Assembly (NCBI GenBank): GCA_964624415.1
Contig: CAZUWR010000001.1
Coordinates: forward strand, 3,855 to 67,854
Direction of reading: 5' to 3'
From: an uncultured Bdellovibrionales bacterium
GTDB taxonomy: Bacteria > Patescibacteriota > Minisyncoccia > Moranbacterales > UBA1568
DNA length: 64,000 nt
The notes beneath the pieces are model-generated. The model had not been told where the DNA came from. It saw only the letters and a list, made by a program, of their open reading frames with translations, and did no database searches. Positions 2,484 to 64,000 of this stretch are shown here, one piece after another. The first letter of the stretch is position 1; every line of letters begins with the position of its first letter. The translations under genes were made by a program, and so were the position numbers.

Positions 2484-3032
2484 GTGAAAAAATGTGTGAG
2501 AGGAATGCTGATACTTTTGGCATCAGTAAGTTTGATCGGATGTTTTCCGCCGTATGATTTTGAACGCTCGGCCATCGAGAGTTCAAGCCGTTTCGATAAC
2601 AGCTTGATAGTAGATGATTTGGAACGCGAAGCGATGGAGAAGCAAGCTGGTGAAGCGATCATTTATCGCAACGGTGAGTTTGCTTATCAAGTCACACCAT
2701 TGCAAATGCGGTATGACAATCGCACGGGCAAAGTGTGTCGCGATTACCAGACCGATGTCATCTTCCGTGGCGATCAAAAATCCGCAAGGAAAACAGCTTG
2801 CAAGTATAGCGGGCAGTGGTATATCGTCAGTATCGATGGAAGATCCACGATACAGTCACGACCACGGTATGCTGTTGTGCAGAATTGGTATATGAATTAC
2901 GGCTCTCCGGGATTCGGTGTACCGGCATGGGCGCAGGGTTTCGGGTATGTCAGTCCGATGTTCGGCCCCATGTTCGGCGGATATCCCCGTACCGGTTTTG
3001 GAGGCGGGGTATATTTTAACGGACGATGGTGA
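2484..3032 (+). CDS. putative lipoprotein, Gly/Phe-rich C-terminus
   Basis: GTG at 2484 lies 5 nt after AAGGAGG (2472-2478). The signal peptide ends in a lipobox-like LIGC. The upstream ORF-track start at 2430 has no RBS. Confidence 0.6.
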   Translation: MKKCVRGMLILLASVSLIGCFPPYDFERSAIESSSRFDNSLIVDDLEREAMEKQAGEAIIYRNGEFAYQVTPLQMRYDNRTGKVCRDYQTDVIFRGDQKSARKTACKYSGQWYIVSIDGRSTIQSRPRYAVVQNWYMNYGSPGFGVPAWAQGFGYVSPMFGPMFGGYPRTGFGGGVYFNGRW

Positions 3033-3192
3033 AGTATATGAGGCGTTTGGATGGAGTGATATTTGCACAAGCAAGTACGCTTTCATTCCAAACGCTTTTT
3101 TCTTTGGCAAAAAACACGCTGTCGTGCGCAAACAAAGTCTTCTACCGATATATATGCTATACTATGACCGTAATATGTTAAGGAGATAATGT

Positions 3193-5299: not shown

Positions 5300-5609
5300 A
5301 TTCCCTCCAAAAGGAATGTAGTTGAAAGAACAAATACGTATCTTGGAAACAAGATAGCTATCAGACTCTAGCATAACAAGGCATATTTGTCCAATTGAAA
5401 GAACCGCCTCGTCCACTTGAGGCGATTTTTGAAGAATGCTATAGTAAAAGCATATCTCGGGTATTTTTTGAGGCAATGTAAGGAAGTCAGTTGTCCTAAA
5501 AAATCAGACAACTAAAATTGGAATGGGAGTGGTAGTGTAGTAAATAAGAAAAACATGAAAGTTTGACACAGCAAGCCGAGAAGTTTCTTATCAAATAAAA
5601 AATAATCGC

Positions 5610-6047
5610 ATGACCTTACATCAACTTCAAAAGATAGGTAACTCCTTAGACTGCCCCGTTGCCATTATTGTAAAAAATGGGAAAATTCTTCATGGTCTCA
5701 GGAATTATACTGAAGACAAGTGGAAAAAAATATCTGTCTGGACGCTTCCGGGAGGTCGATGTGACGAAGGTGAGACATTGGAACAAACTCTTCGCAGGGA
5801 AGTTGAGGAAGAGACCGGTATAACCGAGCTTAAAATTATGGATTATATCGGTGAGACTCCAGGCGCTAAAGAAGGGGATAATGCTTTTATATTTTTTGCA
5901 ACGACTAAACAGGAAGCGATACTTATGGAGCCGGAAAAATTTTCTGAATGGCGATGGGTATCGATTGATGAATACTTGCAAGGAGGCTTGTACAGCTTAA
6001 TGAATCCAGCTGCGCATGTGATGATTAGCAATTACTTAAAGAAATAA
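5610..6047 (+). CDS. NUDIX hydrolase
   Basis: The Nudix box GRCDEGETLEQTLRREVEEETGI matches Gx5Ex7REUxEExGU. Confidence 0.85.
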   Translation: MTLHQLQKIGNSLDCPVAIIVKNGKILHGLRNYTEDKWKKISVWTLPGGRCDEGETLEQTLRREVEEETGITELKIMDYIGETPGAKEGDNAFIFFATTKQEAILMEPEKFSEWRWVSIDEYLQGGLYSLMNPAAHVMISNYLKK

Positions 6048-6051
6048 CCAT

Positions 6052-7056
6052 ATGTCAAAAATCATTTGTATCGGGTCGGCGTCGAAGGATATCTTCTTTC
6101 CTACGGGAGAGGGGATTTTGATGGACACTCCGGAAGATATCACCGCGCAGAAAAAGGTGGCTTTTGAAGTGGGAGCGAAGTATCAGGTGGAAGATCGTTT
6201 TGAGGCAGTGGGCGGTGTGGCGGCCAACTGCGCGCAGGGCTTGGCGCGTTTGGGGCTGGAAGTGTCGACGTATTCGTGTGTGGGCGATGATCAGATCGGC
6301 GATTGGGTGGTGGAGTCGCTACGCGATGAGCATGTCGGGACGGAGTTGGTTGAGCGAAGGCCAGGCGCGCAGACGGACCTTTCGGCTATTTTGGTGTTCA
6401 CTCAAAACGGCGAACGGACGATTTTTTTCAACCGCGATGCCAATGAGCTCTTGCAAGTAGATGGAGAGAAATTATCGGGTGCGGAGTGGATTTTTGTGAG
6501 TGCACTCAATGGGGCATGGCAGGAGAATCTGCGGACAGCAGTGGCTGCCGCACAAGAAAACAACATCAAGCTCGCCCTCAATCCCGGTCAGCGCAATATG
6601 AAAGACGATGTGGCGACAGTACTTGAAGCGGTGAAGGTAGCGGATGTATTGCTCGTGAATAAAGATGAAGCGATAGAGCTCGTGCTCGGCATGGGACAAG
6701 CTTCTTCGGAAGCCTTGCAGGATGAGTTGTTTCTTATTAAGTCATTGCACGCGTATGGCGCGAAAGTGATCGGGATGACGGACGGTATTCGTGGAGCGTG
6801 GGGCTATGATGGCGAGTGTATCATCTTTGTCGATGTGCTCAGGCAGAAGGCGGTCGATGCGACCGGATCGGGTGATGCGTTCGGGAGCGGATTTTTGGCA
6901 GCGCAGATACAGGGGCTCGGATTAGAGCAATCGCTCCGCTTCGGTATCGTGAATGGTGGCAATGTCGTGCGTTTCTATGGCGCCAAGGAAGGATTGCTTC
7001 ATGCGGATGTTATCGAGGCGCTGGCGCAGCAGGTGAATGTTACGACGCTCTTGTAG
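6052..7056 (+). CDS. PfkB-family carbohydrate/nucleoside kinase
   Basis: 334 aa with GGVAANCA in the N-terminal region and the PfkB signature DATGSGDAFGSGFLAA near the C-terminus. Confidence 0.8.
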   Translation: MSKIICIGSASKDIFFPTGEGILMDTPEDITAQKKVAFEVGAKYQVEDRFEAVGGVAANCAQGLARLGLEVSTYSCVGDDQIGDWVVESLRDEHVGTELVERRPGAQTDLSAILVFTQNGERTIFFNRDANELLQVDGEKLSGAEWIFVSALNGAWQENLRTAVAAAQENNIKLALNPGQRNMKDDVATVLEAVKVADVLLVNKDEAIELVLGMGQASSEALQDELFLIKSLHAYGAKVIGMTDGIRGAWGYDGECIIFVDVLRQKAVDATGSGDAFGSGFLAAQIQGLGLEQSLRFGIVNGGNVVRFYGAKEGLLHADVIEALAQQVNVTTLL

Positions 7057-7116
7057 ACGCGTTTTGGTGCTATCAGGCTGGGAATAACCGATTAGAGAGG
7101 CTTTTTTGGTCACTTC

Positions 7117-7145
7117 TTGACAAAATTCGTTTTATGCGCTACACT
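7117..7145 (+). promoter_or_regulatory. sigma-70-type promoter of cspA
   Basis: TTGACA, 17-nt spacer, TACACT. It leaves a 5' UTR of about 75 nt. Confidence 0.6.
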
Positions 7146-7223
7146 GTAGAGGTGTATAGACACGAAAACAGAGTCGAGTTTTTAGCCGTTAGTATATAAA
7201 TAAGAAGTTTTAAGGAAAATCGT

Positions 7224-7421
7224 ATGCAAGGAACAATTAAGACGCTCACAGACAAGGGATTTGGTTTCATTTCTCGCGAAGGTGAGACAAAGGATCTTTT
7301 CTTCCACTCTAAGGAGTTGGTAGGAGTAACTTTCGAGGAATTGAAGGTTGGTGATGTGGTTACTTTCGAGTTGGTAGACACCCAGAAGGGTCCTGCCGCA
7401 ACAAACGTATCCCTCGCGTAA
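7224..7421 (+). CDS. cspA: cold-shock protein (CspA family)
   Basis: 65 aa with the GTIKTLTDKGFGFI RNP-1-like motif, a long 5' UTR after a consensus promoter, and a strong terminator. Confidence 0.9.
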   Translation: MQGTIKTLTDKGFGFISREGETKDLFFHSKELVGVTFEELKVGDVVTFELVDTQKGPAATNVSLA

Positions 7422-7440
7422 GCTTTTATAGCTTGAGAAA

Positions 7441-7471
7441 AAACACTCCCCTCACGGGGGGTGTTTTTTTG
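7441..7471 (+). terminator. intrinsic terminator of cspA
   Basis: ACACTCCCC-TCAC-GGGGGGTGT followed by T7. Confidence 0.8.
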
Positions 7472-7646
7472 ACGCTCATTTTCAAAGAAGCTATACTGAG
7501 AGGAGAAAGACCTTTTGAAAATAAAGTGTATTTCTTTATGAAAAGTATTTTTTCTCAGCCGAGGCGAGTACGCCAATGGCTTAAGAAAAAATCTTTTCAC
7601 AAGAAATACTATTCGAATTGTACGTATCACTAAAATAGTCTCAGCT

Positions 7647-8207
7647 ATGAATGTATCAAAGACAGCAATAGAAGGATTGCTCATTATCGAACCGAAGGCC
7701 TTTGCGGATGATCGGGGGTTTTTTATGGAAGTATATAATCACGATCGGTATGTGGAGGCAGGTATCACCGAACTGTTTGTGCAGGACAATGTCTCGGTGT
7801 CCAAGAAGGGGACACTGCGCGGACTGCATTATCAGGTGCCTCCGTTCGCTCAAGGTAAGCTGGTGCAGGTATTGCGCGGATCGGTACTCGATGTGGCAGT
7901 GGATATCCGAAGCGGCTCACCGACATTCGGGAAATATGTTGCGGTCGAGCTTTCGGCGGAGAACAAAAAACAGTTCTGGATTCCAGCGGGTTTCGCTCAT
8001 GGTTTTGTCGCTTTGGAAGACGAAACGATTTTCAGTTACAAGTGCACCAATCCGTATTCGCCGGAACATGATCGAGGTATTGTGTGGAGTGATTCGGAAA
8101 TCGGTATACAGTGGCCGTTTTCGGTTTCGGAGCTCTTGATTTCCGAGAAAGATGCCGCGCAGCCAAAGCTTAAGGATATCGCACGTGAATTCGTGCAATC
8201 GATTTGA
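7647..8207 (+). CDS. rfbC: dTDP-4-dehydrorhamnose 3,5-epimerase
   Basis: 186 aa with RGLHYQ, GKLVQVLRGSVLDVAVDIR and IPAGFAHGF motifs. Confidence 0.9.
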   Translation: MNVSKTAIEGLLIIEPKAFADDRGFFMEVYNHDRYVEAGITELFVQDNVSVSKKGTLRGLHYQVPPFAQGKLVQVLRGSVLDVAVDIRSGSPTFGKYVAVELSAENKKQFWIPAGFAHGFVALEDETIFSYKCTNPYSPEHDRGIVWSDSEIGIQWPFSVSELLISEKDAAQPKLKDIAREFVQSI

Positions 8208-8350: not shown

Positions 8351-9331
8351 ATGAAACTTTTAGTCACGGGCGGAGCGGGATTTATCGGGTCCAATTTCAT
8401 CCACTATATCCTCAAGAAATATCCCGAGTACAGCGTGGTCAATCTGGATGCTTTGACGTATGCAGGCAATCCGGAAAACGTGCGGGAGTGGGAAGGTGAC
8501 CCGCGGTATACTTTCGTTAAGGGGGATATTTGCGATGCAGAGCTTGTGGAAAAATTGGTGCAAGGTGTCGATGCTATCGTACACTTTGCTGCCGAGTCGC
8601 ATGTCGATCGCTCTATCTTGGATGCGCATTCATTCGTGCAGACCAATGTGATTGGAACGCAAACGCTTTTGGATGCCGCTCTGCACAATGACAAGAAGCG
8701 TTTTCATCATGTCTCGACCGACGAGGTCTTCGGTGCGCTCAAACCAGAAGATGAGCCGTTTTCAGAGAAGACACCCTATGACCCGCGCAGCCCGTACAGC
8801 GCTTCGAAGGCCGGATCCGATCATCTGGTGCGGGCGTATTTCCACACCCACGGACTACCGGTGACGATTTCCAATTGTTCCAATAATTATGGCCCGTATC
8901 ATTTTCCGGAAAAGCTGATACCACTGGCAATTACTAATCTAATGGAAGGGAAGCAGGTGCCGGTCTATGGCGACGGGATGCAGGTGCGCGATTGGCTTTT
9001 TGTCGAGGATCACTGCCGTGCCATCGATTTGATCGTGCATCAGGGGGCGCTCGGTGAGACCTACTGTGTGGGTGGGGCATCGGAGCGCGCCAATATCGAT
9101 ATCGTGAAGCAGCTGCTCAAGCTTATGGGCAAGGATGAAACGAGTATTGAGTATGTGACCGACCGGCTCGGGCATGATCGGCGCTATGCTATCGATTTTT
9201 CAAAAATCAAAAAAGAACTCGGATGGGAGCCGACCGTGACCCTCGAAGATGGACTCAAGCAGACCGTTGAGTGGTTTACAGAGAACGAAGGCTGGTGGCA
9301 GCGCATCAAGTCGGGGGAGTATAGAAAATAA
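8351..9331 (+). CDS. rfbB: dTDP-glucose 4,6-dehydratase
   Basis: 326 aa with the Rossmann motif VTGGAGFIGSNF, YSASKAGSD (YxxxK) and DRRYAID. Confidence 0.9.
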   Translation: MKLLVTGGAGFIGSNFIHYILKKYPEYSVVNLDALTYAGNPENVREWEGDPRYTFVKGDICDAELVEKLVQGVDAIVHFAAESHVDRSILDAHSFVQTNVIGTQTLLDAALHNDKKRFHHVSTDEVFGALKPEDEPFSEKTPYDPRSPYSASKAGSDHLVRAYFHTHGLPVTISNCSNNYGPYHFPEKLIPLAITNLMEGKQVPVYGDGMQVRDWLFVEDHCRAIDLIVHQGALGETYCVGGASERANIDIVKQLLKLMGKDETSIEYVTDRLGHDRRYAIDFSKIKKELGWEPTVTLEDGLKQTVEWFTENEGWWQRIKSGEYRK

Positions 9332-32635: not shown

Positions 32636-32795
32636 TGTGTCTGATATAAGTAACCATCTATAATCTTTTCGTTTTTTGCTTTTGTATAGTGTTCTTTCGA
32701 ACTGCCGGGTCAAAGACGAAAGGTGAGAAAAAATACTATCAAAAGCCAAAAAACCAAGAGGTAGAAGATTTTGAACAGTTGCTAAGAGTATTATT

Positions 32796-33146
32796 ATGAA
32801 AAAATACACGGGCAGTTGCCACTGCGGAGCAGTTCGATATGAGGTTGAAACGGATCTGGCAAAGGTTATCTCCTGCAATTGTTCGCATTGTCATAAGAAA
32901 GGATTTCTGCTTCATTTTGTGCCTGCGACGCAGTTCATCCTGCTTTCCGGGGAAGAGAATCTGACGGATTATCGGTTCAATACCGAAAAGATTGCGCACT
33001 TGTTTTGCAAGACATGCGGGGTGCAGTCATTTGGAAGAGGCGCGGGCAAGGATGGCGTGCCTATGGTGGCGGTAAACGCGCGTTGTCTGGATAATGTAGA
33101 TACCGACACACTGGAAGTCACTAAGGTGGATGGCAAGAGTATGTGA
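32796..33146 (+). CDS. GFA/CENP-V family zinc protein
   Basis: GSCHCGAVRYEV, CNCSHCHKKG and FCKTCG Cys clusters typical of the glutathione-dependent formaldehyde-activating (GFA) fold. Confidence 0.75.
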   Translation: MKKYTGSCHCGAVRYEVETDLAKVISCNCSHCHKKGFLLHFVPATQFILLSGEENLTDYRFNTEKIAHLFCKTCGVQSFGRGAGKDGVPMVAVNARCLDNVDTDTLEVTKVDGKSM

Positions 33147-33148
33147 CC

Positions 33149-33244
33149 TTGACAAAAGTCAATTATGGGTGTATAAAGAAATGTCTTATCAGTGAGATGC
33201 CTTACTGATCGAAAGACCAATGAAATTGAAATGAGGAGAAAAAG
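33149..33244 (+). promoter_or_regulatory. promoter plus conserved hairpin leader, copy A
   Basis: TTGACA (33149-33154), 17-nt spacer, TATAAA, then GTCTTATCAGTGAG...ACTGATCGAAAGACCAATGAA and a GAGGAG RBS. It is about 80 percent identical by eye to copy B. Confidence 0.6.
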
Positions 33245-33415
33245 ATGGCCCTGTTACCGTATCCCATTGAGTGTCTTATTTGTAAATACATGAAAATGGA
33301 GGATCCTTGCCCTAGGTGTAAGGGCGAGCGTTCAGAAGATCGAGAACCTTCTGATGTCGAGATACAAAAACAACTCTTTGAACAGGATGTTGAGGAGGTT
33401 GCACAAAATTGTTAA
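33245..33415 (+). CDS. 56-aa zinc-ribbon-like acidic protein (not in ORF track)
   Basis: ATG at 33245 lies 7 nt after GAGGAG. The protein is MALLPYPIECLICKYMKMEDPCPRCKG followed by an acidic tail. It has its own consensus promoter with leader, and a terminator. Confidence 0.5.
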   Translation: MALLPYPIECLICKYMKMEDPCPRCKGERSEDREPSDVEIQKQLFEQDVEEVAQNC

Positions 33416-33423
33416 AAGGGTTC

Positions 33424-33460
33424 GCGTCGGAAGGTATATGCCATTCGACGCGCTTTTTTA
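33424..33460 (+). terminator. intrinsic terminator
   Basis: GCGTCGGA-loop-TTCGACGC followed by GCTTTTTT. It overlaps the nrdG stop codon. Confidence 0.65.
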
Positions 33461-34168
33461 TTCCCGGATACTGATGGAATCGAGATAGGGAAGCATTGTT
33501 TTTCGGATGGCATGCAGGTCGAGCTTATGTGTACCGATACGCTCGCGGAGGGTTTCGTCGGCAATTTTGAGCGGGCGGAAAGCCTGGAGGACATAGCTTT
33601 CGGCGCCGGCGATCCACTGCGCGATATCGAGGAAATCTTCGGGCGTGTGGATGCTGGGGACGACGGTGGTACGAAATTCATACGGCATACCGGAGGACAT
33701 CAGCAGTTTCACGGACTTCTCGAAGCGTTTGATGGGGATGGATGTGACACCGGATGCGAGCGGATACTTTTTTTGGCTGTGCTTGATATCCATCGCCCAA
33801 AAGTCCACCAAACCCGTGGCGAGGAGCGCTTCCACCTTGTCGGGGAAGATGCCGTTGGTATCGAGCTTGACGAGAAAGCCAAGGTCTTTGACACGGCGGA
33901 TGAAGTCGAGCAGGTCGGCGTGCAAGGTGGGCTCGCCGCCGGTAATGACCACGCCCTCGAGCAGTCCTTGGCGGGTCGCGAGAAATTCGAAAAACTCCTC
34001 TTCGCGATTGACGGTGAACAATTCCGAGGGACTGCCCGGGACGGCAGTGATGAGCTCGGGGTTGTGGCAATAGGGGCAACGAAGCGCGCAACCGGGCGTG
34101 AACACGATAGTGGCCAAGTGATCAGGGTAGTCGATAAGGGTGAGCGGTTCGAAGCCAGCGATACGCAT
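33458..34168 (-). CDS. nrdG: anaerobic ribonucleoside-triphosphate reductase activating protein (radical SAM)
   Basis: GCALRCPYCHNPEL is a CxxxCxxC cluster. GGEPTL motif. Adjacent to nrdD. Confidence 0.9.
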   Translation of the reverse strand: MRIAGFEPLTLIDYPDHLATIVFTPGCALRCPYCHNPELITAVPGSPSELFTVNREEEFFEFLATRQGLLEGVVITGGEPTLHADLLDFIRRVKDLGFLVKLDTNGIFPDKVEALLATGLVDFWAMDIKHSQKKYPLASGVTSIPIKRFEKSVKLLMSSGMPYEFRTTVVPSIHTPEDFLDIAQWIAGAESYVLQAFRPLKIADETLRERIGTHKLDLHAIRKTMLPYLDSISIRE

Positions 34169-34172
34169 AGGA

Positions 34173-34261
34173 TTGACAAAAGTCGGTTACGGGTGTATAA
34201 TACGGTGTCTTATCAGTGAGGAATCTGACTGAGGAAAGACCAATGAACGAGGAGAGTACAA
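34173..34261 (+). promoter_or_regulatory. promoter plus conserved hairpin leader, copy B
   Basis: TTGACA (34173-34178), 17-nt spacer, TATAAT (34196-34201), then GTCTTATCAGTGAG...ACTGAGGAAAGACCAATGAA and a GAGGAG RBS. Confidence 0.6.
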
Positions 34262-34630
34262 ATGAATATAGCTTTTTTACAAGTACCAGAGATTGACGAT
34301 TTGGCCGCTTTTGAGGATTGGCTCAAAGGAGAGGGGTATTTTCTCTCACAGATAGCTATAGAAGCCACTGTGAAAGAAATGATAGAGATCGAGCATACAC
34401 CGTGTATCGTCGTGTCAGTAGATGATATTAGTTTAGATCCTAGTTTACTAGTGCTAGACTGTCACAATCAAAGATTTATTATTTGGAGCACTCTCGAAAA
34501 TGAACTTGCGAATATTTCTGATATGTTTGGCTACTCTTATTGGGTGGCGGTGAATGTGGAAAATCAAGAACAGGATCCTTTAACTGAATCAGATGATAAG
34601 GATGATTTGGAAAATTATCTTTGGAATTGA
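34262..34630 (+). CDS. hypothetical acidic protein
   Basis: 122 aa with GAGGAG RBS, a consensus promoter with leader, and a terminator. No family recognised. Confidence 0.5.
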   Translation: MNIAFLQVPEIDDLAAFEDWLKGEGYFLSQIAIEATVKEMIEIEHTPCIVVSVDDISLDPSLLVLDCHNQRFIIWSTLENELANISDMFGYSYWVAVNVENQEQDPLTESDDKDDLENYLWN

Positions 34631-34637
34631 CGCCCGC

Positions 34638-34680
34638 GCGCCGGAGAGAGGTTAGCAACCTTTCTCCCGGCGCTGTTTTT
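34638..34680 (+). terminator. intrinsic terminator
   Basis: GCGCCGGAGAGAGGTT-AGCA-AACCTTTCTCCCGGCGC followed by a T run. It sits between the 122-aa ORF and the nrdD stop. Confidence 0.7.
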
Positions 34681-34686
34681 TTATCC

Positions 34687-36900
34687 TCACATCCGTGTCG
34701 CTTCCGCAGTGGCGAGAGAGATGTCCGAGACATACTCATTGCGATCGCCATACTCGGCGCGCTTGCCATTGTTCCACTGCTCGACGGGGCGGATATAGCC
34801 CACGACGCGTGAGTAGACTTCGGCTGGGCGCTCGCAGTGCGGGCAGATCGGTTGTTCGCCGGTCAAGTAGCCGTGCTCGGCGCAGATGCTGAAGGTCGGT
34901 GTGAGGGTGAAGTATGGCAGACTGTATTTTTCGGTGATAAGCTTGACCAGTTTTTTGGCTGTTTCGATGCCGTTGATTTTCTCTCCCAAAAATCCGTGTA
35001 GCACCGTGCCTCCCGTGTAGAGGGTTTGGAGGCCGTCTTGCAGATCGAGCGCTTCGAAGATATCGCTCGTGTGCCCCACGGGAATATGCGATGAGTTGGT
35101 GTAGTATGGGGCGGTTTGCTCGGATTGTACGGAAGCCTCATTGGCCACGATAATGTCTGGGTGGAATTTCTTGTCCAAAAGAGCGAGGCGATAAGCGGTG
35201 CCTTCGGCCGGTGTGGCTTCGAGGTTGTAGAGATTGCCGGTTTCTTTCTGATAGCCTTCCAGACGCTTGCGCATATGCGTGAGGATTTTTTTCGCGAAGG
35301 CTTGGCCTTTGGCGGTAGTGATATCGACTTGCGCGCCGAGGAGATTTTGGATGGCTTCGTTGGTGCCGACCAAACCGATAGTGCCGAAGTGATTTTGCCA
35401 GTAGGTGCCGAAGCGTTCCTTGATAGCGGAGAGGTAGAATTTGGTGTAGGGGTACAGACCCTTGTCCGTGAGGCGCTCGACGACGGTGCGCTTCATCTCA
35501 AGGCTTGTCTTGGCAAGGTCCATCTGATGGTCGAGTCGCGCGAAGAAGTCTTTTTCACTGGAAGCAAGATAGCCCAGGCGAGGAAGGTTGATGGTCACCA
35601 CACCAATGGAACCGGTGAGGGGATTGGCGCCGAAGAGTCCGCCACCGCGCTTGCGCAGTTCGCGATTATCGAGGCGCAATCGACAACACATACTGCGTGC
35701 ATCATCGGGATGCATATCCGAATTGACGAAGTTGGCGAAGTATGGGATGCCGTATTTGACCGTCATCTCCCACACGGGATTGAAGCTCTTGTCGTCCCAA
35801 TCAAAGTCCTTGGTGATATTGTAGGTCGGAATCGGGAAAGTGAAGATGCGTCCCGAGGCATCGCCTTCTGTCATCACTTCGGCGAAGGCGCGGTTGATCA
35901 TCGCCATTTCTTTGGGAAAATCGGCGTAGGTTTCTTTCTGGACTTCGCCTCCGCGGACGACATGTTCTTTGGCGAGCATCGCGGGCGCGGTGATGTCCAT
36001 CGTGATATTGGAAAACGGTGTCTGGAAGCCGACGCGCGTGGCGACATTCATATTGAACACGAAGGATTGGATGTCTTGCTTGACCTGCGCGTAACTGAGT
36101 TTGTCGTAGCGGATGAACGGGGCGAGCAGGGTGTCGAAACTCGAGAAGGCCTGCGCTCCGGCCACTTCGCCTTGGAGAGTGTAGATGAAATTGACCATCT
36201 GCCCGAGGATGGCGCTGAAGTGTTTGGCGGGTTTGCACGCCACCTTGCCTGGGACACCGGTGAAGCCGCGACGGATAAGGTCTTGCAGATCCCAACCGCA
36301 ACAGTATGCGGCGACGAGCTGCAAATCGTGGATGTGCAGGTCGCCCGATTCGTGCGCTTCGCGGATATCGGCCGTGTAGATGCGATTCATCCAGTACTTG
36401 GCACTGATAGCAGACGAAACATAGTTGTTCAGTCCCTGGAGAGAATAAGCCATATTGGCATTTTCTTTGACCTTCCAGTCGAGATTGCCGAGATAGTTGT
36501 CGATGAGCGAGACAGCATTGTCCAGAGCGGTTTCCGCTTCGCGTGCTTGACGCCTTTGCTCGCGGTAGAGGATGTAGGCTTTGGCGGTTTCTTCGAAGTC
36601 CAGTATCATCAGGACTTTTTCGGTGCAGTCCTGTACATTCTCGATAGTCGGCACAAAGGATTTCTTGGTGGCTTTGTGAAAGGTGCGCGCCTGTTTGTCT
36701 AGGAGTGCGACGACTTTTTTTGAAATACGTCGCGCATCCTTAAGAGATCCTTCCTGAGTAGCTTTGAAAGCCTTGCTGACGGCTTGGGTTATTTTGTCCG
36801 CTTTGAAAGAAACTCTGCGGCCGTCGCGTTTGATGAGGTGTTTGACACAGACGGCTTTGGACGAAACAGTGGCGGACGGCGTGGCGATAGTGCGTGGCAT
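34687..36900 (-). CDS. nrdD: anaerobic ribonucleoside-triphosphate reductase (class III) with N-terminal ATP-cone
   Basis: ATP-cone VIKRDGRRVSFKADKI, C-terminal zinc site CPHC and the glycyl-radical motif SRVVGYIRPV. ATG at 36900 is preferred to the track start at 36960. Confidence 0.9.
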   Translation of the reverse strand: MPRTIATPSATVSSKAVCVKHLIKRDGRRVSFKADKITQAVSKAFKATQEGSLKDARRISKKVVALLDKQARTFHKATKKSFVPTIENVQDCTEKVLMILDFEETAKAYILYREQRRQAREAETALDNAVSLIDNYLGNLDWKVKENANMAYSLQGLNNYVSSAISAKYWMNRIYTADIREAHESGDLHIHDLQLVAAYCCGWDLQDLIRRGFTGVPGKVACKPAKHFSAILGQMVNFIYTLQGEVAGAQAFSSFDTLLAPFIRYDKLSYAQVKQDIQSFVFNMNVATRVGFQTPFSNITMDITAPAMLAKEHVVRGGEVQKETYADFPKEMAMINRAFAEVMTEGDASGRIFTFPIPTYNITKDFDWDDKSFNPVWEMTVKYGIPYFANFVNSDMHPDDARSMCCRLRLDNRELRKRGGGLFGANPLTGSIGVVTINLPRLGYLASSEKDFFARLDHQMDLAKTSLEMKRTVVERLTDKGLYPYTKFYLSAIKERFGTYWQNHFGTIGLVGTNEAIQNLLGAQVDITTAKGQAFAKKILTHMRKRLEGYQKETGNLYNLEATPAEGTAYRLALLDKKFHPDIIVANEASVQSEQTAPYYTNSSHIPVGHTSDIFEALDLQDGLQTLYTGGTVLHGFLGEKINGIETAKKLVKLITEKYSLPYFTLTPTFSICAEHGYLTGEQPICPHCERPAEVYSRVVGYIRPVEQWNNGKRAEYGDRNEYVSDISLATAEATRM

Positions 36901-37044: not shown

Positions 37045-37111
37045 GTTTGGCTTTGCAGGGCTTAGGGTGTAAGATGGAAGGGAACTTCGTAACCATTTTT
37101 GTATCAATCAT

Positions 37112-37552
37112 ATGGAGATAAAAGAACTCGGACACATCGTTTTGTACGTGACCAATTTGGCTCGTTTGGCCGATTTTTACCGAGATACCCTAGGGTTTCG
37201 GGAAATCTCCCGCGACCGGCAGACAGCGCTTTTTTCCTCCGGTCGTACGCATCACGAGTTGCTCTTGATCGAAATCGGGGGCGCGCCGAAAAGCAAGCAC
37301 GGCGTCGAGCCCGGACTCTACCATATCGGGCTGAAAATAGGGGATAGCACGGAGAGTGTGAAGCAGGCCTACCAGGAATTGACAGAAAAGGGCGTGACCA
37401 TCGTCGGATCCGCCGATCACAGTGTTACTCACAGCCTCTATATTCTCGATCCTGACGGCAATGAACTGGAACTGTATGCTGATGTGTCCGATGAGTGGAA
37501 AACGAACCCCAAGGCCATTCTGAAACCGACGCAGTACCTTTCTTTGGAATAA
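37112..37552 (+). CDS. VOC-family (glyoxalase/bleomycin-resistance/dioxygenase fold) protein
   Basis: 146 aa. LGHIVLYVTNLARLADFYRDTLGF and YHIGLKI motifs. Confidence 0.7.
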   Translation: MEIKELGHIVLYVTNLARLADFYRDTLGFREISRDRQTALFSSGRTHHELLLIEIGGAPKSKHGVEPGLYHIGLKIGDSTESVKQAYQELTEKGVTIVGSADHSVTHSLYILDPDGNELELYADVSDEWKTNPKAILKPTQYLSLE

Positions 37553-41552: not shown

Positions 41553-41609
41553 TTTATAGAATCATAGTGTTTATGGTTTGTTGGTGTTTACACACAAGGA
41601 TATTGTTGT

Positions 41610-41680
41610 TGGGGAGGAAGGGATCGAACCTTCGCATGGGGGCTTCAAAGGCCCCTGCCTTACCGCTTGGCTACTCCCCA
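41610..41680 (-). tRNA. tRNA-Gln (anticodon UUG), CCA not encoded
   Basis: The reverse complement reads TGGGGAG-TA-GCCAAGCGGTAAGGCA-G-GGGGC-CTTTGAA-GCCCC-CATGC-GAAGG-TTCGATC-CCTTC-CTCCCCA. It has a 7-bp acceptor stem, a GGTTCGATCC T-arm and the anticodon loop CU-UUG-AA. Confidence 0.9.
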
Positions 41681-41707
41681 ATAATGACTTTTTCTCTTAT
41701 AGACAAA

Positions 41708-41734
41708 GATCCTTCGACTACGCTCAGGATGACA
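41708..41734 (+). repeat. GTCATCC...GGATC palindromic element, half copy
   Basis: GATCCTTCGACTACGCTCAGGATGACA is identical to 59188-59214. It is intergenic, between dnaX and tRNA-Gln. Confidence 0.65.
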
Positions 41735-41843: not shown

Positions 41844-43493
41844 TCAGGCGACGATCTCACCACCGAGAATGCTCATCGCTTCGGTCAAAATCGGGCTGAT
41901 CGGAGCTTGCGCGACGGGTGCTGATTGAGGTGTCGCGCTCTCGTCCAAGACCACTTTGATCTTTGTTTTTGACTCTAAAATTGTATCAAAAGCGCTCTCT
42001 ACTGTCAATTTGTTCTCGACGGCATTGATTTTGTCTTTGTACATCGGGAACTTGGCGCCGAGCACGACACTACCGCCATCGCCGATATACAAGGGTCTGC
42101 AATTGCCGAGAGTGAGGGCGAGCGAGGAGTTGAGCTCGCGCACTTTGGCGATGATAGATTGCCAGTGGTCTTTGACCGTGTCTATGCTTACGGCAGCTGT
42201 TTCTGTGGGTGCAGTTGTTGGTATGACCGGTTCGGCGGCTGGCGAGGTGAGGGGTTGTGTGCCGATTACATAGGGGGCTGCGGGTTCTTTAACAAGCGAT
42301 GCTTGAGTAAGTGTTGTTTGTTGTTTGTTGTTTGTTGTTAATTGTTGACTGTTCTCCGTTTTCTGTTTATTGTTCACTGTTTGCTGTTGATTGCTCACGG
42401 ACTCAGGCACAAGAAACTTGACCACAGCGATTTCGAGCGGGAACTGGGCGATGGAGGCAATACGGATTTCTTTGCGCGCCGATGAGAAGAGATCGATGAG
42501 CGTGATGATCCCGGAGGTGGTGAGGCTTTCCGCACAAGCGGTGAGCGTATCGATGTGCTCTCGCGTCATTTCGAGGGCGAGGGTGTCGGCAAGGGTGCGG
42601 TCGACACTGATAAGAAGCATCTGCCGAAGCGAGTGTAGGAGGGAATTGACGAAGATATACAGATCGGCACCAGTTTCCACCAGTTGATTGATAAGGGCGA
42701 TAGCATTTTCCATCTCCCCGTGCGTGAGATGCGCCAGAAGCGTATCGACTTTTTGTTGATCGGTGATGCCGAGTATGGAGGAGACTTCGTCGGTCGTGAT
42801 AGTTTTGTCTTCGAGACTGATGACCTGCGTGAGGAGGGATTCGGCATCGCGCATACCACCCTCGGCGGCAAGGGCGATCATCTCGAGCGCAGGCTTGTCG
42901 ATAGCTACTCCCTCGCTTGCAGCGATACCGGCGAGCTTTTCGATGATATGATCGAGCGGAAGGCGTGAGAAATCGAAGCGCTGGCAGCGGGAAAGGATGG
43001 TCTCGGGGACTTTGTGTAAAGAGGTGGTAGCGAGAATGAAGATGACATGCTTGGGTGGCTCCTCGAGTGTCTTAAGGAGCGCGTTGAAAGCGCCGATGGA
43101 GAGCATATGTACTTCATCGATGATATAGACCTTGAAGGGCGCTTGTGTTGGGAGGAGTTTGATAGAGTCGCGCAGTTCGCGAATATTGTCCACGCCGGTA
43201 TTGGAAGCGGCATCGATTTCAATTACATCAAGCGAGCTTCCGCTCGCCATAGCGAGGCAGTGAGCGCACTGAAGACAGGGTTCCACACCTTTCCGATCAA
43301 GACAGGTGACTGCTTTTGCCAAAAGCCTGGCAGTGGTGGTTTTACCGGTACCGCGCGGCCCCGTAAAGAGATAAGCCTGGCCGAGGCGATCGTTTTTGAG
43401 GGCATTGGTGATGGTTTTGATGATATGGGTTTGCCCGATGACATCGGAAAATTGTTGCGGGCGGTATTTGCGGTACAGTGTATTGGTAGACAT
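41844..43493 (-). CDS. dnaX: DNA polymerase III subunit gamma/tau
   Basis: YRKYRPQQFSDVIGQ, Walker A GPRGTGKTT, zinc module CLQCAHC, DEVHMLS and SRC motifs. Gln/Asn/Thr-rich linker after domain III. The start is ATG at 43493 or TTG at 43508. Confidence 0.9.
   Translation of the reverse strand: MSTNTLYRKYRPQQFSDVIGQTHIIKTITNALKNDRLGQAYLFTGPRGTGKTTTARLLAKAVTCLDRKGVEPCLQCAHCLAMASGSSLDVIEIDAASNTGVDNIRELRDSIKLLPTQAPFKVYIIDEVHMLSIGAFNALLKTLEEPPKHVIFILATTSLHKVPETILSRCQRFDFSRLPLDHIIEKLAGIAASEGVAIDKPALEMIALAAEGGMRDAESLLTQVISLEDKTITTDEVSSILGITDQQKVDTLLAHLTHGEMENAIALINQLVETGADLYIFVNSLLHSLRQMLLISVDRTLADTLALEMTREHIDTLTACAESLTTSGIITLIDLFSSARKEIRIASIAQFPLEIAVVKFLVPESVSNQQQTVNNKQKTENSQQLTTNNKQQTTLTQASLVKEPAAPYVIGTQPLTSPAAEPVIPTTAPTETAAVSIDTVKDHWQSIIAKVRELNSSLALTLGNCRPLYIGDGGSVVLGAKFPMYKDKINAVENKLTVESAFDTILESKTKIKVVLDESATPQSAPVAQAPISPILTEAMSILGGEIVA
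42313..42352 (+). repeat. heptanucleotide tandem repeat plus A/C-rich element in the dnaX linker
   Basis: (GTTGTTT)x3 plus GTTGTTA at 42313-42340. The segment 42320-42352 matches dnaE 61738-61767. Confidence 0.65.
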
Positions 43494-58789: not shown

Positions 58790-59779
58790 TTAGAAGAAGA
58801 TCTCTGTTTCCGAGGCAGCCTCTATCCAGTGGATATCAGCGCCCTGTTTTTCCCATCGGCGCAGCCAAGTGCGCTGTCTTTTGGCATAGTGGACGATGTC
58901 GAAGAAAAGTTTTTCTTTCATTGTCGGTTCGTCGATGTTTCCCTGCAAGAAGCGAGCTATCCATCGGTATTCAAGACCGAAGGCCTCCAGTTTTTCCCAT
59001 GCCGCGCCATGCTCGTGGAGGCGCCGCACTTCTTCGATCATGCCCTGATCGAAGCGTTCGTCCAGGCGTTTTCGTATATTCGCATCCAGGATGTCTTTTG
59101 GAGGATTGAACGCGATAATGAAATAGTTGCTTTGATTGATATATTGAGGTTTGGGATGTGTCATTCCGATCGTAGCGGAGGAATCCGAGATCCTTCGACT
59201 ACGCTCAGGATGACATATCATGGGGTTGCTCTGCAGTGAAGGGACTTTTCCAAGTGATTGTACGATTTCCAGAGCCCGGATAAGCCGGATGGGATTGTTT
59301 CTATCGATAGTTAGGGCTCTTTCCGGATCGATGGCTTGCAGTTTTGCAAAGAGTTCTTGGATAGAAAGGTGCGAAAGTTCTTTGCGCAGTATGAGATCGG
59401 GCAAGACCTCCGGGAAGGATTGGTTATCGATGAGCGCCTGCGCCCAAAAAAGCGTACCTCCGCAGAGGATGGGGAGTTTGCCGCGGCTTCGGATGTCTCG
59501 GATGATTGCTTGGGCATCACATTTGAAGTCCGTGACATTGTACTCCTCGTGCGGCTCGCGAATATCGAGGAGGTGATGCTGAGCGAGCGACTGCTCTTCG
59601 GTAGTCACCTTACCCGTCCCGATATCCATTCCGCAGTACACCTGTCGGCTGTCGGCTGAAATAATCTCGCCATCGTATTTGAGGGCCAGTGAAATTGCCA
59701 AAGAAGACTTGCCCGAGGCTGTCGGCCCGACGATGGCAAGGGTTTGTGATCTGTCGAATTTTCTTGACGTATGATTCAT
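58790..59779 (-). CDS. miaA: tRNA dimethylallyltransferase, carrying an in-frame 57-nt palindromic element
   Basis: P-loop GPTASGKSS, SADSRQVY, GGTLFW and RLIRALEI motifs. The segment CHPERSRRISDSSATIGMT is encoded by the repeat at 59158-59214. Confidence 0.9.
   Translation of the reverse strand: MNHTSRKFDRSQTLAIVGPTASGKSSLAISLALKYDGEIISADSRQVYCGMDIGTGKVTTEEQSLAQHHLLDIREPHEEYNVTDFKCDAQAIIRDIRSRGKLPILCGGTLFWAQALIDNQSFPEVLPDLILRKELSHLSIQELFAKLQAIDPERALTIDRNNPIRLIRALEIVQSLGKVPSLQSNPMICHPERSRRISDSSATIGMTHPKPQYINQSNYFIIAFNPPKDILDANIRKRLDERFDQGMIEEVRRLHEHGAAWEKLEAFGLEYRWIARFLQGNIDEPTMKEKLFFDIVHYAKRQRTWLRRWEKQGADIHWIEAASETEIFF
59158..59214 (+). repeat. 57-nt palindromic element (two inverted GTCATYC...GGAWTC arms) inside miaA
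   Basis: TGTCATTCCGATCGTAGCGGAGGAATC-CGA-GATCCTTCGACTACGCTCAGGATGACA. Its length is divisible by 3 and the reading frame is preserved. Confidence 0.7.
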
Positions 59780-61476: not shown

Positions 61477-64000
61477 CTACTCCACACTGGCAACTCCGGC
61501 AATATCCGCGAGTTGTTTTTTTGTATCTTCGGTCGCTTCGATGGTGTGCGGGGTGTGTATGGTGGCGCCCTGGACGCGGACATAGACGGGCGTCTCGCCC
61601 TTGGGGAGACGGGCGAGGGTAGCGGAGACGGTTTCGAGGAGCTGTTTGCTTACAGCGCTGTCTTGGAGAGTGATGGTGAGGCGGAGATTTTTACCGGATC
61701 CCGCATCAAGTACGGGATGACTTAGATGATGTTGTCCGTTGGTTGTTGGTTGTTGATTGTTGACTGTCTGTGGTTCGTTTTTCGCTCGTGTCAAGAGGAC
61801 TCGCTTGAAAGTCTCGACGGACTGCAAATCGACTTTCTCGGCATCCTCGGCGAGTATTTTTGGGACGCCGTCTTCATTGGAAAGTCTGCCCTGCACGATG
61901 ACGAGTTCGTCTTCTATCCACATACCGCCGGTTTTTTCTACAGCGCGCGGGAAGACGAGCACTTCGACGCGCCCGGTCAGGTCTTCGAGGCTGACGAAAA
62001 ACATTTCTTGCTGGCGTTTGGTGTAGGTTTTGCGCACGGTGCTGATGACACCGCCCACTTTGACGCTGATACCGCTCTCTCGCTTTTCCAAATCATGAAT
62101 CGGAATGGTAATCTGATCGAAGTATTCCTTGAAATCGCTGACCGGATGATCGCTGACATAGAGGCCGAGGAGTTCCTTTTCCCACTTGAGCTTTTGTTTT
62201 TTCTCGATAGGTGGCACGTTTTCGAGGCGTAGCTCGGAGGTTTCGATCGGCATGCTTCCGAAGAGGCTGTCGGTGTGAGTTTCTTTTATCTTCTGCAGAT
62301 TGCGGGAGTGTTTGAGGATTTTGTCGATGCTGGCAAGGAGCTGACTGCGCTCGCCGAAAGCATCGAGGGCGCCCACTTTTGAGAGAGCTTCGAGGGATTT
62401 CTTGTTGAGGTCTTTGGTCTGGACACGCTCGACGAAATCGGCGATGGAGCGGAACTTTCCACCGCGCTTGCGCTCTTTGACGATTTCTTCAGCAGCTACT
62501 TTGCCGACGTTTTTGATGGCATTGAGTCCGAAGCGGATACGCTCTTTTCCTTCGGCATCCGGGACAACGGCAAATTCCTCGAAGCTTTCATTGACATCCG
62601 GTGGCAAGACCTCGATGCCCATCTCGCGGCATTCATTGACCTCGATAGCGATGCGATCCGTCGTGTCCTGGTCGGAGGTGAGGAGGGCGGCCATAAAGGA
62701 TGCCGGGTAATGTGCTTTAAGGTAGGCGGTCTGATAGCCGATGAGCGCATAGCAGGCAGCGTGCGAACGGTTGAAACCATATCCGGCGAACGGTTCGATA
62801 AACGCGAAGACTCCCTCGGCTATATCTTTGCTGATGCCTTGCTCACCGCAACGCGCCACGAATTTGATGCGCTGCTCTTGAATGAGCTCGAGGATTTTTT
62901 TGCCCATCGCTTTGCGAAGCACATCGGCTTCGCCGAGGGTGAAGCCGGCCAGGTCGCGGGCGATTTGCATCACTTGCTCCTGATAGACGGCCACGCCATA
63001 GGTAGTGGCGAGTATCGGTTCAAGTTTCGGGTGCAGGTACTTCACGGTTTTGCGTCCGTGTTTGCCATCGATAAAATCAGGGATCCAGTCCATCGGTCCC
63101 GGACGGTAGAGGGCGACCATAGCGATGATGTCTTCGAGGACGGTCGGCTTAAGCTGGCGCAGGTAGCGCTTCATACCATTGCTTTCCAGCTGGAAGACGC
63201 CGGTCGTGTGGGCCTTTTGGAGTAGCTCATAGGTTTTTTCGTCATCGATAGGGAGGCGATCCATAATGTCGGAAATGGAAGCGGTCTTCGGGTCAAGGCC
63301 GATACGGATGATGAGTTCGTCGAGTTTGCCCAATGCGCGGATGATGCGGATGGTGTTTTGCATGATGGTGAGGTTTTTGAGTCCCAAAAAGTCCATCTTG
63401 AGCAAGCCGATCTTTTCCACGGCGCTGAATTTGGTGGAGGAAGCATACTGTGTCACGGTGCCTTCTCGTGTGCCGGAGATTTTTTGGATGGGGGTGTATT
63501 CGGTGACCGGGTCTTTGGTGATCACCACGCCGCAGGCATGCATCGAGGCATGGCGCGCGAGACCTTCGAGGTTTTTGGCCACGTCGATGAGCTTGCGCGC
63601 TTCCGGATCCGCATCGTAGAGTTTTTTGAAATCCACCGCTTCTTCGAGCGCTTTTTTCATCGTGGAAAACATCGGGATGAGTTTGGCGACTTGATCGCAG
63701 AGCGCATACGAATAGCCCAGTGCACGACCCGTGTCGCGGATAGCCGCGCGCGCCGCCATTGTTCCGAAGGTGATGATCTGTGCGACGTGATCGTGGCCGT
63801 ATTTTTCGCGGACATAGTTGAGCACATCATCGCGACGATCATCGGCGAAGTCCATATCGACATCGGGCATCGAGATACGTTCCGGATTGAGGAATCGCTC
63901 GAAGAGGAGATCGTATTCGATTGGATCCATGTTGGTGATACCGGTGAGGTAGGCGACGAAACTTCCCGCCGCCGAGCCGCGTCCCGGCCCCACCATGATC
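61477..64000 (-). CDS. dnaE: DNA polymerase III alpha subunit (5'-truncated by window edge)
   Basis: GPGRGSAAGS, MPDVDMDF, FNRSHAACYA and HhH/OB regions. The C-terminal extension contains repeat-derived NNQQPTTN and SHPVLDAGSGK. Confidence 0.9.
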   Translation of the reverse strand, partial: IMVGPGRGSAAGSFVAYLTGITNMDPIEYDLLFERFLNPERISMPDVDMDFADDRRDDVLNYVREKYGHDHVAQIITFGTMAARAAIRDTGRALGYSYALCDQVAKLIPMFSTMKKALEEAVDFKKLYDADPEARKLIDVAKNLEGLARHASMHACGVVITKDPVTEYTPIQKISGTREGTVTQYASSTKFSAVEKIGLLKMDFLGLKNLTIMQNTIRIIRALGKLDELIIRIGLDPKTASISDIMDRLPIDDEKTYELLQKAHTTGVFQLESNGMKRYLRQLKPTVLEDIIAMVALYRPGPMDWIPDFIDGKHGRKTVKYLHPKLEPILATTYGVAVYQEQVMQIARDLAGFTLGEADVLRKAMGKKILELIQEQRIKFVARCGEQGISKDIAEGVFAFIEPFAGYGFNRSHAACYALIGYQTAYLKAHYPASFMAALLTSDQDTTDRIAIEVNECREMGIEVLPPDVNESFEEFAVVPDAEGKERIRFGLNAIKNVGKVAAEEIVKERKRGGKFRSIADFVERVQTKDLNKKSLEALSKVGALDAFGERSQLLASIDKILKHSRNLQKIKETHTDSLFGSMPIETSELRLENVPPIEKKQKLKWEKELLGLYVSDHPVSDFKEYFDQITIPIHDLEKRESGISVKVGGVISTVRKTYTKRQQEMFFVSLEDLTGRVEVLVFPRAVEKTGGMWIEDELVIVQGRLSNEDGVPKILAEDAEKVDLQSVETFKRVLLTRAKNEPQTVNNQQPTTNGQHHLSHPVLDAGSGKNLRLTITLQDSAVSKQLLETVSATLARLPKGETPVYVRVQGATIHTPHTIEATEDTKKQLADIAGVASVE
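61695..61720 (+). repeat. GTCATCC...GGATCC hairpin element inside dnaE
   Basis: GGATCCCGCATCAAGTACGGGATGAC has an ATCCCG/CGGGAT stem. It encodes SHPVLDAGS on the minus strand. Confidence 0.55.
61738..61767 (+). repeat. A/C-rich element in dnaE shared with dnaX
   Basis: On the coding strand, ACAGTCAACAATCAACAACCAACAACCAAC compares with ACAGTCAACAATTAACAACAAACAACAAAC in dnaX. Confidence 0.6.

Follow-up and report, generated by a model that had tools for sequence, protein, structure and literature searches.

Two copies of a promoter-leader repeat flank nrdG

The 64-kb stretch of DNA analyzed here (contig CAZUWR010000001.1, hereafter the window) carries nrdD, encoding a class III ribonucleotide reductase (RNR), and nrdG, encoding its activase, on the minus strand. 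On each side of nrdG lies a plus-strand repeat made up of a promoter, a leader hairpin and an A-rich tail, and each repeat is followed by a small open reading frame (ORF) and a terminator (Table 1). Copy 1 precedes ORF56 downstream of nrdG, and copy 2 precedes ORF122 between nrdG and nrdD. Homologs of NrdG that are 84-50% identical, named NrdG or anaerobic RNR activase, come from Candidatus Moranbacteria and place the locus in this lineage of the candidate phyla radiation.

An initial annotation of the window had described two direct repeats of about 90 nucleotides (nt) and about 80% identity, each with a near-perfect promoter, a leader hairpin and a GAGGAG ribosome-binding site, that serve two small ORFs with terminators of their own and flank an opposite-strand nrdG. 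The consensus matches of the promoters, the leader folds, the positions of the GAGGAG sites, the ORF reading with the terminator folds, and the Pfam matches and homologs of NrdG all agree with this anatomy (Table 1). The identity of the repeats also stood, and only their length had to be corrected: the core is 76 nt long (33149-33224 in copy 1 against 34173-34247 in copy 2, plus strand), with 61 of 76 positions identical (80%). Pairwise alignment of the copies, which form family D2 of the repeat search, gave 82% mean column identity over ~120 columns.

Likeness between the copies stops directly after CCAAUGAA, where copy 1 goes on to a ribosome-binding-site context of its own and then to an unrelated ORF. 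What was reused is thus precisely the promoter, the hairpin and the tail; past CCAATGAA the copies have only the GAGGAG site in common. Both halves of the motif gave exactly two matches in the window and none in 100 shuffles. When a covariance model was run over the window, copy 2 scored 94.7 bits and copy 1 92.3 bits, and the next match, an unrelated consensus promoter, scored 19 bits. Only 2 of the 15 mismatches between the copies fall in the -35 box, the -10 box and the stems, which together occupy 38 of the 76 positions (permutation P = 0.002). By their hexamers and 17-nt spacing both copies are predicted sigma-70-type promoters. The -35 box of copy 1 begins 2 nt past the stop codon of a GFA-domain gene, and G+C content is ~40% in both promoter-leader gene units compared to 55-60% in nrdDG. 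A TG was also seen immediately 5' of TATAAT at 2384, 33149 and 34173.

Table 1. Features of the nrdDG region of the window, and positions of the cassette in the window and in the loci of relatives (L numbers). aa, amino acids; MFE, minimum free energy.
Feature	Position	Strand	Description
Copy 1 promoter	33149-33177	+	Predicted; -35 TTGACA (33149-33154), 17-nt spacer, -10 TATAAA (33172-33177); 11/12 consensus
Copy 1 leader hairpin	33183-33217	+	GUCUUAUCAGUGAG-AUGC-CUUACUGAUCGAAAGAC; MFE -14.4 kcal/mol, z = -5.3
Copy 1 tail	33218-33244	+	Unpaired A-rich CAAUGAA, last shared bases to 33224; then copy-specific stretch and GAGGAG (33233-33238)
ORF56	33245-33415	+	Putative 56-aa acidic CxxC-x8-CxxC protein
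ORF56 terminator	33421-33459	+	A tract, hairpin, U tract; -21.8 kcal/mol on +, -14.5 on −
Copy 2 promoter	34173-34201	+	Predicted; -35 TTGACA (34173-34178), 17-nt spacer, -10 TATAAT (34196-34201); 12/12 consensus; kept in L003, L004, L006, L009
Copy 2 leader hairpin	34207-34240	+	GUCUUAUCAGUGAG-GAAU-CUGACUGAGGAAAGAC; MFE -12.2 kcal/mol, z = -2.3
Copy 2 tail	34241-34261	+	CAAUGAA and GAGGAG (34249-34254); AACGAGGAGA common to orthologs
ORF122	34262-34630	+	122-aa acidic protein; motifs FExWLxxEGFxLxQIA, PCI, YWVAVN; disordered acidic C-terminal tail
ORF122 terminator	34638-34682	+	-27.2 kcal/mol; abuts nrdD stop codon; U tract on + only
nrdG	33458-34168	−	Anaerobic RNR activase, 236 aa; Pfam Radical_SAM, Fer4_12
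nrdD	34687-36900	−	Class III RNR, 737 aa from ATG at 36900; Pfam NRDD (E = 7.6e-194), ATP-cone
Cassette, window	34169-34686		
Cassette, L002	7277-8000		
Cassette, L003	5152-5495		
Cassette, L004	7317-8000		
Cassette, L006	7379-8000		
Cassette, L018	4759-5087		

Structure of the leader hairpin

Starting 5 nt past the -10 hexamer, the leader reads GUCUU-A-UCAGUGAG-(4-nt loop)-CUNACUGA-(3-4 nt)-AAGAC, then CAAUGAA, and the GAGGAG sites lie 6-7 nt 5' of the ORF56 and ORF122 start codons. In both copies and in all relatives the hairpin opens at the G expected as +1, the predicted transcription start. Complementarity stops exactly at this G in the six typical leaders, so the hairpin would occupy the extreme 5' terminus of the mRNA.

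Pairing was analyzed in the six leaders that could be aligned (window copies 1 and 2, L003, L004, L006 and L009). Standard pairs fill 97% of the pair cells, compared to 38-51% when the 3' partners are slid. Pairs vary only in the apical four positions, with one compensatory change from U-A to C-G (L009), four one-sided changes by way of G·U and one G-G mismatch (copy 2). The loops all differ in sequence (GAAU, AUGC, AACA, AAAA, GAAAA, ACAAU), the 3' internal loop varies as well, and the sole invariant unpaired base is one bulged A. The more divergent leaders of L002 and L018 have different inner stems, and their hairpins still open at the predicted +1 with GUCU and close with AGAC.

The hairpin also has a strand polarity. 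Because the asymmetries between the arms are G·U, plus-strand RNA is the more stable, by 2.6-8.3 kcal/mol in 7 of 8 leaders (-13.6 versus -9.4 kcal/mol for the copy 1 leader). This polarity favors a structure formed in the mRNA of the cassette. It speaks against one in an nrdG leader and, less strongly, against an operator in the DNA.

An operator in duplex DNA would place a dimeric repressor at +1 to +35 of a strong promoter and switch both small genes together. An 8-bp inverted repeat with a 4-5 bp spacer directly past the -10 box is in the classic position for a repressor, its arm sequences are highly conserved, and the palindrome of L002 reaches upstream of the predicted +1; like LexA or LacI-type operators, the repeat is common to two genes of one genome. 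Unlike such operators, however, its half-sites differ just where pairing of plus-strand RNA tolerates G·U, its arms of 13 interrupted base pairs are longer than usual half-sites, and the palindrome begins at the predicted +1 in 6 of 7 alignable cases, the six typical leaders among them. The L002 and L018 sequences differ at the matching place, and in L009 both arms have changed symmetrically. The cassette is not linked to, and does not co-occur with, any transcription-factor gene, and the nearby extracytoplasmic function (ECF)-type sigma factor genes are also found where the cassette is absent. NrdR, a regulator of nrd promoters, binds boxes with the consensus acaCwAtATaTwGtgt; the single match in the window, with three mismatches at 21037, lies away from nrdDG and is no better than chance (37 of 100 shuffles). 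An operator is therefore an improbable account of these findings.

The initial annotation had also offered a ligand-binding RNA, and a small riboswitch or other ligand- or temperature-sensing element was weighed against the anatomy of the leader. Like the cis-regulatory leaders in Rfam, this one is a conserved, structured 5' untranslated region, it stands beside genes of nucleotide metabolism, and its absence from Rfam leaves room in principle for a new class. But the leader folds into one interrupted hairpin, whose loop varies and whose internal loop is poorly conserved, and it lacks the conserved unpaired nucleotides of a binding pocket or an aptamer-like core. There is no expression platform either: the ribosome-binding site is unpaired in every MFE and centroid fold, and the folds of the leaders showed no U tract 3' of the hairpin, no attenuator, no choice between terminator and anti-terminator and no alternative pairing that hides the ribosome-binding site. 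The driven genes are unrelated to each other and are neither metabolic genes nor transporters. A search of the window with Rfam 15 returned a tRNA at 41609-41680 as the sole match, and a permissive search of 33100-34300 gave best E values of 0.8-9 to unrelated families, which is chance level and short of even a marginal score. The sensor reading is thus close to refuted.

Other elements were sought in the leader and rejected. A leader peptide could start at the ATG inside CCAATGAA, but this codon is not conserved and is ACG or ACA in L004, L006 and L009. In copy 1 it opens a 4-codon upstream ORF, MKLK (33221-33235), with its stop within the ribosome-binding site, and in copy 2 an 18-codon out-of-frame upstream ORF (34244-34300); these reading frames are probably not functional. 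Neither kink-turns nor CsrA-type GGA motifs are consistently present in the alignment, as read by eye.

Conservation and history of the cassette

The nrdDG loci of eleven relatives were compared with the window. Copy 2 belongs to a cassette of promoter, hairpin, small ORF and terminator that runs on the opposite strand and separates nrdD from nrdG. Whether relatives also have ORFs at this place, a point raised with the initial annotation, had a divided answer. The cassette is present in L002 (NrdG 84% identical to that of the window), L003/L016 (82%), L004/L005 (79%), L006/L007 (76%) and L018 (73%), and it is absent from L017 (79%), L019 (76%), L008 (72%) and L009 (67%), where the gap between nrdD and nrdG is only 4-37 nt. 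Since nrdD and nrdG are adjacent in the relatives without a cassette, it was inserted into an originally coupled pair. L017 has a 37-nt spacer that still agrees in 18 of 19 positions with the nrdD-proximal half of an L004-type terminator, which points to secondary loss of the cassette in that genome.

In L003/L016, L004/L005 and L006/L007 the module abuts the nrdG start codon and is the ortholog of copy 2. Copies in relatives score 74-96 bits with the covariance model. The 74-bit copy is that of L009, where nrdD and nrdG are adjacent and the module is found downstream of nrdG, placed as copy 1 is in the window, in front of a 66-aa acidic ORF. The cassettes of L002 and L018 have the architecture of the window cassette but different ORFs. 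Conservation of the transcribed hairpin, and not of the -35 and -10 boxes only, which the initial annotation had read from two copies, therefore extends to orthologous loci of related genomes (L003, L004, L006). The repeat is also no strain-specific duplication, the outcome named beforehand as speaking against a regulatory role, as the module occupies the orthologous site, 4 nt from the start codon of nrdG, in four other lineages of Candidatus Moranbacteria.

The age of the duplication can be judged from the identities among copies, which are 80% between copies 1 and 2, 81% between copy 2 and L004, 80% between copy 2 and L006, and 78% between copy 1 and L003. Copy 2 is thus as far from copy 1 as it is from its orthologs (80-81%), indicating that the duplication is old and that both copies are under like constraints. 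The proposal of a recent duplication thus does not hold. A recombination footprint around nrdG, the other possibility raised, is partly right, because the copy 2 unit lies within an inserted cassette that is present or absent among close relatives. The ORF56 unit was found, among the sampled relatives, in the window genome only.

A wider search for copies did not yield a set that could define a regulon. The covariance model found no further copies in the window or in ~160 kb of related loci, and exact-pattern scans of public collections, which detect near-consensus copies only and are blind to variants like L009, L002 and L018, added none. The strict pattern TATCAGTGAGN{3,6}CTNACTGAN{1,4}GAAAGACC had no match in public genome contigs, and is too strict, as it would miss even L004 and L006. 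The relaxed pattern GTCTTATCAGTGRGN{3,6}TNACTGA had one match in genome contigs, within a Desulfobacterales coding region and judged to be chance, and none in viral contigs. Of its four matches in metagenome contigs, two are the nrd loci L015 and L016 and the other two lie in coding sequence and were also judged to be chance.

How the cassette might move was considered from its flanks. An IS200/IS605-like element and an integron attC site were rejected, as the left and right hairpins are unrelated, there is no GTTRRRY core and no transposase or integrase gene lies nearby. In L009, inverted CCTGTCATTGCGA...GGCAATCCC units stand on both sides of the promoter-hairpin cassette (8780-8830 and 9215-9260), hinting at a way in which such cassettes might move. 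In a more distant relative, L010, a 234-aa ORF without a family match lies between nrdD and nrdG on the same strand (2711-3415), and the junction of the two genes seems to be a recurrent insertion point. A literature search on nrdD and nrdG in Patescibacteria found nothing relevant.

The constant placement of the cassette raises the question of how nrdG is transcribed. In cassette-bearing loci only 4-5 nt separate the nrdG start codon from the -35 box of the cassette (4 nt in the window), which leaves no room for a promoter of its own, so nrdG transcription must cross the cassette in antisense. The terminator on the nrdD side has its U tract on the cassette strand only in all six genomes with a cassette, and read-through from nrdD to nrdG therefore remains possible. 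These features could mean that convergent antisense transcription is what matters, with a strong promoter firing towards nrdD across the read-through that would be the sole route to nrdG, tuning the ratio of nrdG to nrdD by interference or by pairing of sense and antisense RNA, with the ORFs and the leader secondary. Wherever it occurs, the cassette runs on the opposite strand and exactly fills the nrdD-nrdG gap, its architecture stays constant while the ORF content differs (L002, L018, L003), and the 4-37 nt gaps of the cassette-free loci are consistent with coupled expression. As in excludon-like or convergent-promoter loci, a strong predicted promoter stands on the opposite strand inside nrdD-nrdG, and its transcript would be fully complementary to the only plausible nrdG leader. 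Unlike in those loci, however, two copies of the module, window copy 1 and that of L009, are placed downstream of nrdG behind an apparently bidirectional terminator and overlap no nrd transcript, yet they keep promoter and hairpin, so conservation of the hairpin is not explained by antisense transcription. The protein of the antisense unit is also under selection (ORF122 family, below). We regard antisense control as the main function of the locus as rather unlikely, and give a modulation of nrdG by convergent transcription, as an effect additional to another function of the leader, similarly low odds; such an effect is compatible with the explanation preferred below.

A proposed stabilizing hairpin at the predicted 5' end

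The leader is a conserved element at the transcript level, restricted to one clade, rather than a strain-specific accident. Its anatomy fits a 5'-end stabilizing hairpin within a portable module for strong expression, and not a ligand sensor or an element that controls a whole regulon. Our preferred explanation, to which we assign a probability of about 0.5, is that the repeat is the expression module of lineage-specific small-gene cassettes beside nrdG in a subclade of Candidatus Moranbacteria, and that its 5' hairpin stabilizes the mRNA. The module would combine a consensus sigma-70-type promoter, a stem-loop of 34-35 nt starting at the predicted +1, a short A-rich single-stranded spacer and a strong ribosome-binding site, with an intrinsic terminator closing each cassette. 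The hairpin would base-pair the 5' end of the mRNA, and a paired 5' end would block decay that depends on this end, by removal of the triphosphate or attack of RNase E or RNase J. High, constitutive expression of the small acidic proteins would then result from this protection combined with the consensus promoter and the ribosome-binding site. Long ago the 76-nt promoter-leader would have been reused across nrdG in front of an unrelated zinc-ribbon ORF, leaving two copies in the window genome.

Hairpins at or near the 5' end are known to stabilize bacterial mRNAs such as ompA, papA, bla and aprE; RppH requires unpaired 5' nucleotides, and the classical 5'-terminal stem-loops block both RppH and 5'-end-dependent RNases (PMC3997798). 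The module is like the E. coli ompA and papA leaders, the hairpins appended to bla and the B. subtilis aprE leader in having a stable hairpin at, or 1-2 nt from, the predicted 5' end, followed on its 3' side by an unstructured spacer and a strong ribosome-binding site (PMC3997798). The freely varying loops, and the other stems found at the matching position in L002 and L018, would also suit such stabilizers. Unlike them, the module travels with its promoter as a 76-nt unit that was reused before unrelated ORFs, its host is an uncultivated bacterium of the candidate phyla radiation, and both its start and its effect are predicted.

Hairpins in this position may be a general habit of the genome. 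Of nine promoter-like sites close to consensus in the window, six have a hairpin behind them whose stem opens at the first or second nucleotide of the predicted transcript, compared to 24% of random 40-mers (P ~0.009). Sites with such a hairpin at the first or second predicted transcribed base include 2384-2450, 49342 (minus strand), 51776 and 60688.

Several observations weigh against a simple stabilizer. The predicted +1 is placed by the position of the -10 box alone. The enrichment of hairpins behind promoters comes from a post hoc test, designed after the data had been seen. The structure-aware check suggested with the initial annotation showed a high share of standard pairs, but covariation is weak in six sequences: a double change occurs once, and a score as high as the observed one came up in 84 of 500 shuffles. 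None of the basal nine pairs varies, even though free positions are only 45-72% identical, and GUCU/AGAC is retained even in L002 and L018. Sequence itself thus seems constrained here and not pairing alone, more than structure requires, and a pure stabilizer needs no such constraint; its source could be the initial transcribed sequence or a protein bound there. In L002 a perfect 15-bp palindrome reaches ~5 bp upstream of the predicted +1, which fits a palindrome at the DNA level better than one in RNA, or else a template-switch mutation that perfected an inverted repeat.

The constraint on sequence speaks for a different role, the protein-binding option of the initial annotation, in which the hairpin is the site of a lineage-specific RNA-binding regulator, possibly a cassette protein acting on its own message, that coordinates the small proteins beside nrdDG after initiation. 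In addition to GUCUU/AAGAC, UCAG/CUGA and the bulged A are invariant in the six leaders, the outermost bases persist in the divergent pair L002 and L018, and within one genome two unrelated ORFs have kept the leader alike. However, the analysis yielded no candidate regulator, neither the loop nor the internal loop is constant, and the module occurs just twice in 64 kb and nowhere else in the ~160 kb of related loci. A strongly acidic character, as the cassette proteins have it, is unusual in RNA binders, and invariance of the basal stem is also possible from constraints on the initial transcribed sequence together with pairing. We consider a regulator-bound hairpin unlikely, though worth keeping in view.

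If the stabilizing hairpin is the right explanation, the module is a compact, naturally reused 76-nt unit of promoter and 5' hairpin from a bacterium of the candidate phyla radiation. To our knowledge, almost nothing is known of transcript starts, leaders and mRNA decay in that radiation, and the module would offer a concrete case open to testing and perhaps a part for use in heterologous expression. The opposite-strand small-gene cassette that came to lie between nrdD and nrdG, and that was then retained, changed or lost again and again, is perhaps of more biological interest than the leader, and it raises the questions of the route by which nrdG is expressed and of whether the small acidic proteins have any link to anaerobic nucleotide reduction. 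These results overturn no current knowledge, and their value is descriptive and moderate.

Cassette proteins and terminators

ORF122 was at first an apparent orphan, since a word-indexed protein search returned only itself, but this was rejected when the related loci and an exhaustive phmmer search gave homologs of 36-46% identity (P0124 in L004, L006 and P0128). The ratio of nonsynonymous to synonymous substitution rates (dN/dS) in the family is 0.27-0.39. Judged by these comparisons, ORF122 is protein-coding and belongs to a clade-restricted family under purifying selection. The family had no match in Pfam, PHROGs, PADLOC or PDB sequences and no relatives in viral contigs. AlphaFold modeling of ORF122 gave a mean predicted local distance difference test (pLDDT) score of 44 from the single sequence and 68 from a 3-sequence alignment, the latter a model of moderate confidence with a compact alpha/beta domain and a disordered acidic tail; this model had no significant fold match.

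The other cassettes hold a 186-aa membrane protein (L002), a 52-aa acidic ORF (L018) and a 57-aa chimeric ORF (L003), and none of the cassette ORFs matched PHROGs, PADLOC, Pfam or PDB sequences. ORF56 is putatively coding, on the basis of its ribosome-binding site, ORF and terminator only, and no homolog beyond itself was found in the word-indexed protein search or in Pfam, PHROGs, PADLOC and PDB sequences. Behind the ORF122 homolog of L004, on the minus strand of that locus (~7385-7600), lies a second cistron for a 71-aa CxxC...CxxCxxC zinc-ribbon protein. BLASTP shows no similarity between it and ORF56, and a common origin is not claimed.

Both terminators of the window consist of a G+C-rich hairpin followed by UUUUUU(U), and for the ORF122 terminator the position is kept and the stems are compensated in relatives. 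The ORF56 terminator looks bidirectional and may also end nrdG, whose stop codon sits in the U tract.

Acidic-aromatic C-terminal tails recur in cassette proteins that otherwise differ (ORF122, encoded at 34592-34630, L003, L006, L009 and L018), with the sequences DDKDDLENYLWN, DLGEDLFD, DLGKDLFD, EDERDYFDF and DDFADDY. The beta subunits of class I RNR and single-stranded-DNA-binding proteins bind their partners by C-terminal tails, which we presume the cassette tails to resemble. A broader scenario would join several of the roles considered above: the promoter-hairpin would mark co-regulated accessory proteins of class III RNR, with the hairpin as the handle of a regulator, acidic tails (DDLENYLWN, DLGxDLFD, DDFADDY, EDERDYFDF) would dock to NrdD or NrdG, and antisense transcription would set the dose of nrdG. 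We hold this combination to be improbable as well.

Neighboring genes and other repeats

The nrdD gene call was taken from L001, a Logan contig identical to the window. On the same contig the gene caller picked a 235-aa shadow ORF on the plus strand (33512-34219 in the window), antisense to nrdG, over nrdG itself, and the NrdG of the window was absent from the protein-search matches. Read by eye, the starts of the GFA-domain gene (32780-32798), nrdG (34166-34185, minus strand) and a glyoxalase gene (37095-37114) lack a ribosome-binding site of the GGAGG type, in contrast to the two cassette ORFs with their GAGGAG. In L011 (CP064974.1, a complete Moranbacteria genome), nrdD is split into a 692-aa ORF and an 83-aa NRDD fragment ~170 nt apart (5418-7916), which could reflect a frameshift, an intervening sequence or an assembly problem.

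Elsewhere in the window, AGATCCTTCGACTACGCTCAGGATGACA occurs twice at 100% identity (41707-41734 and 59188-59215), with one copy adjoining the tRNA gene. These 28-nt direct repeats at 41707 and 59188 were considered as attachment sites and rejected, as they look like copies of a dispersed palindromic repeat, to which GTCATTCCGATCGTAGCGGAGGAATC at 59160-59186 is related. A short repeat run of the TGTTGTT type (family D1) is found at 42312-42401 and again at 61727-61767.

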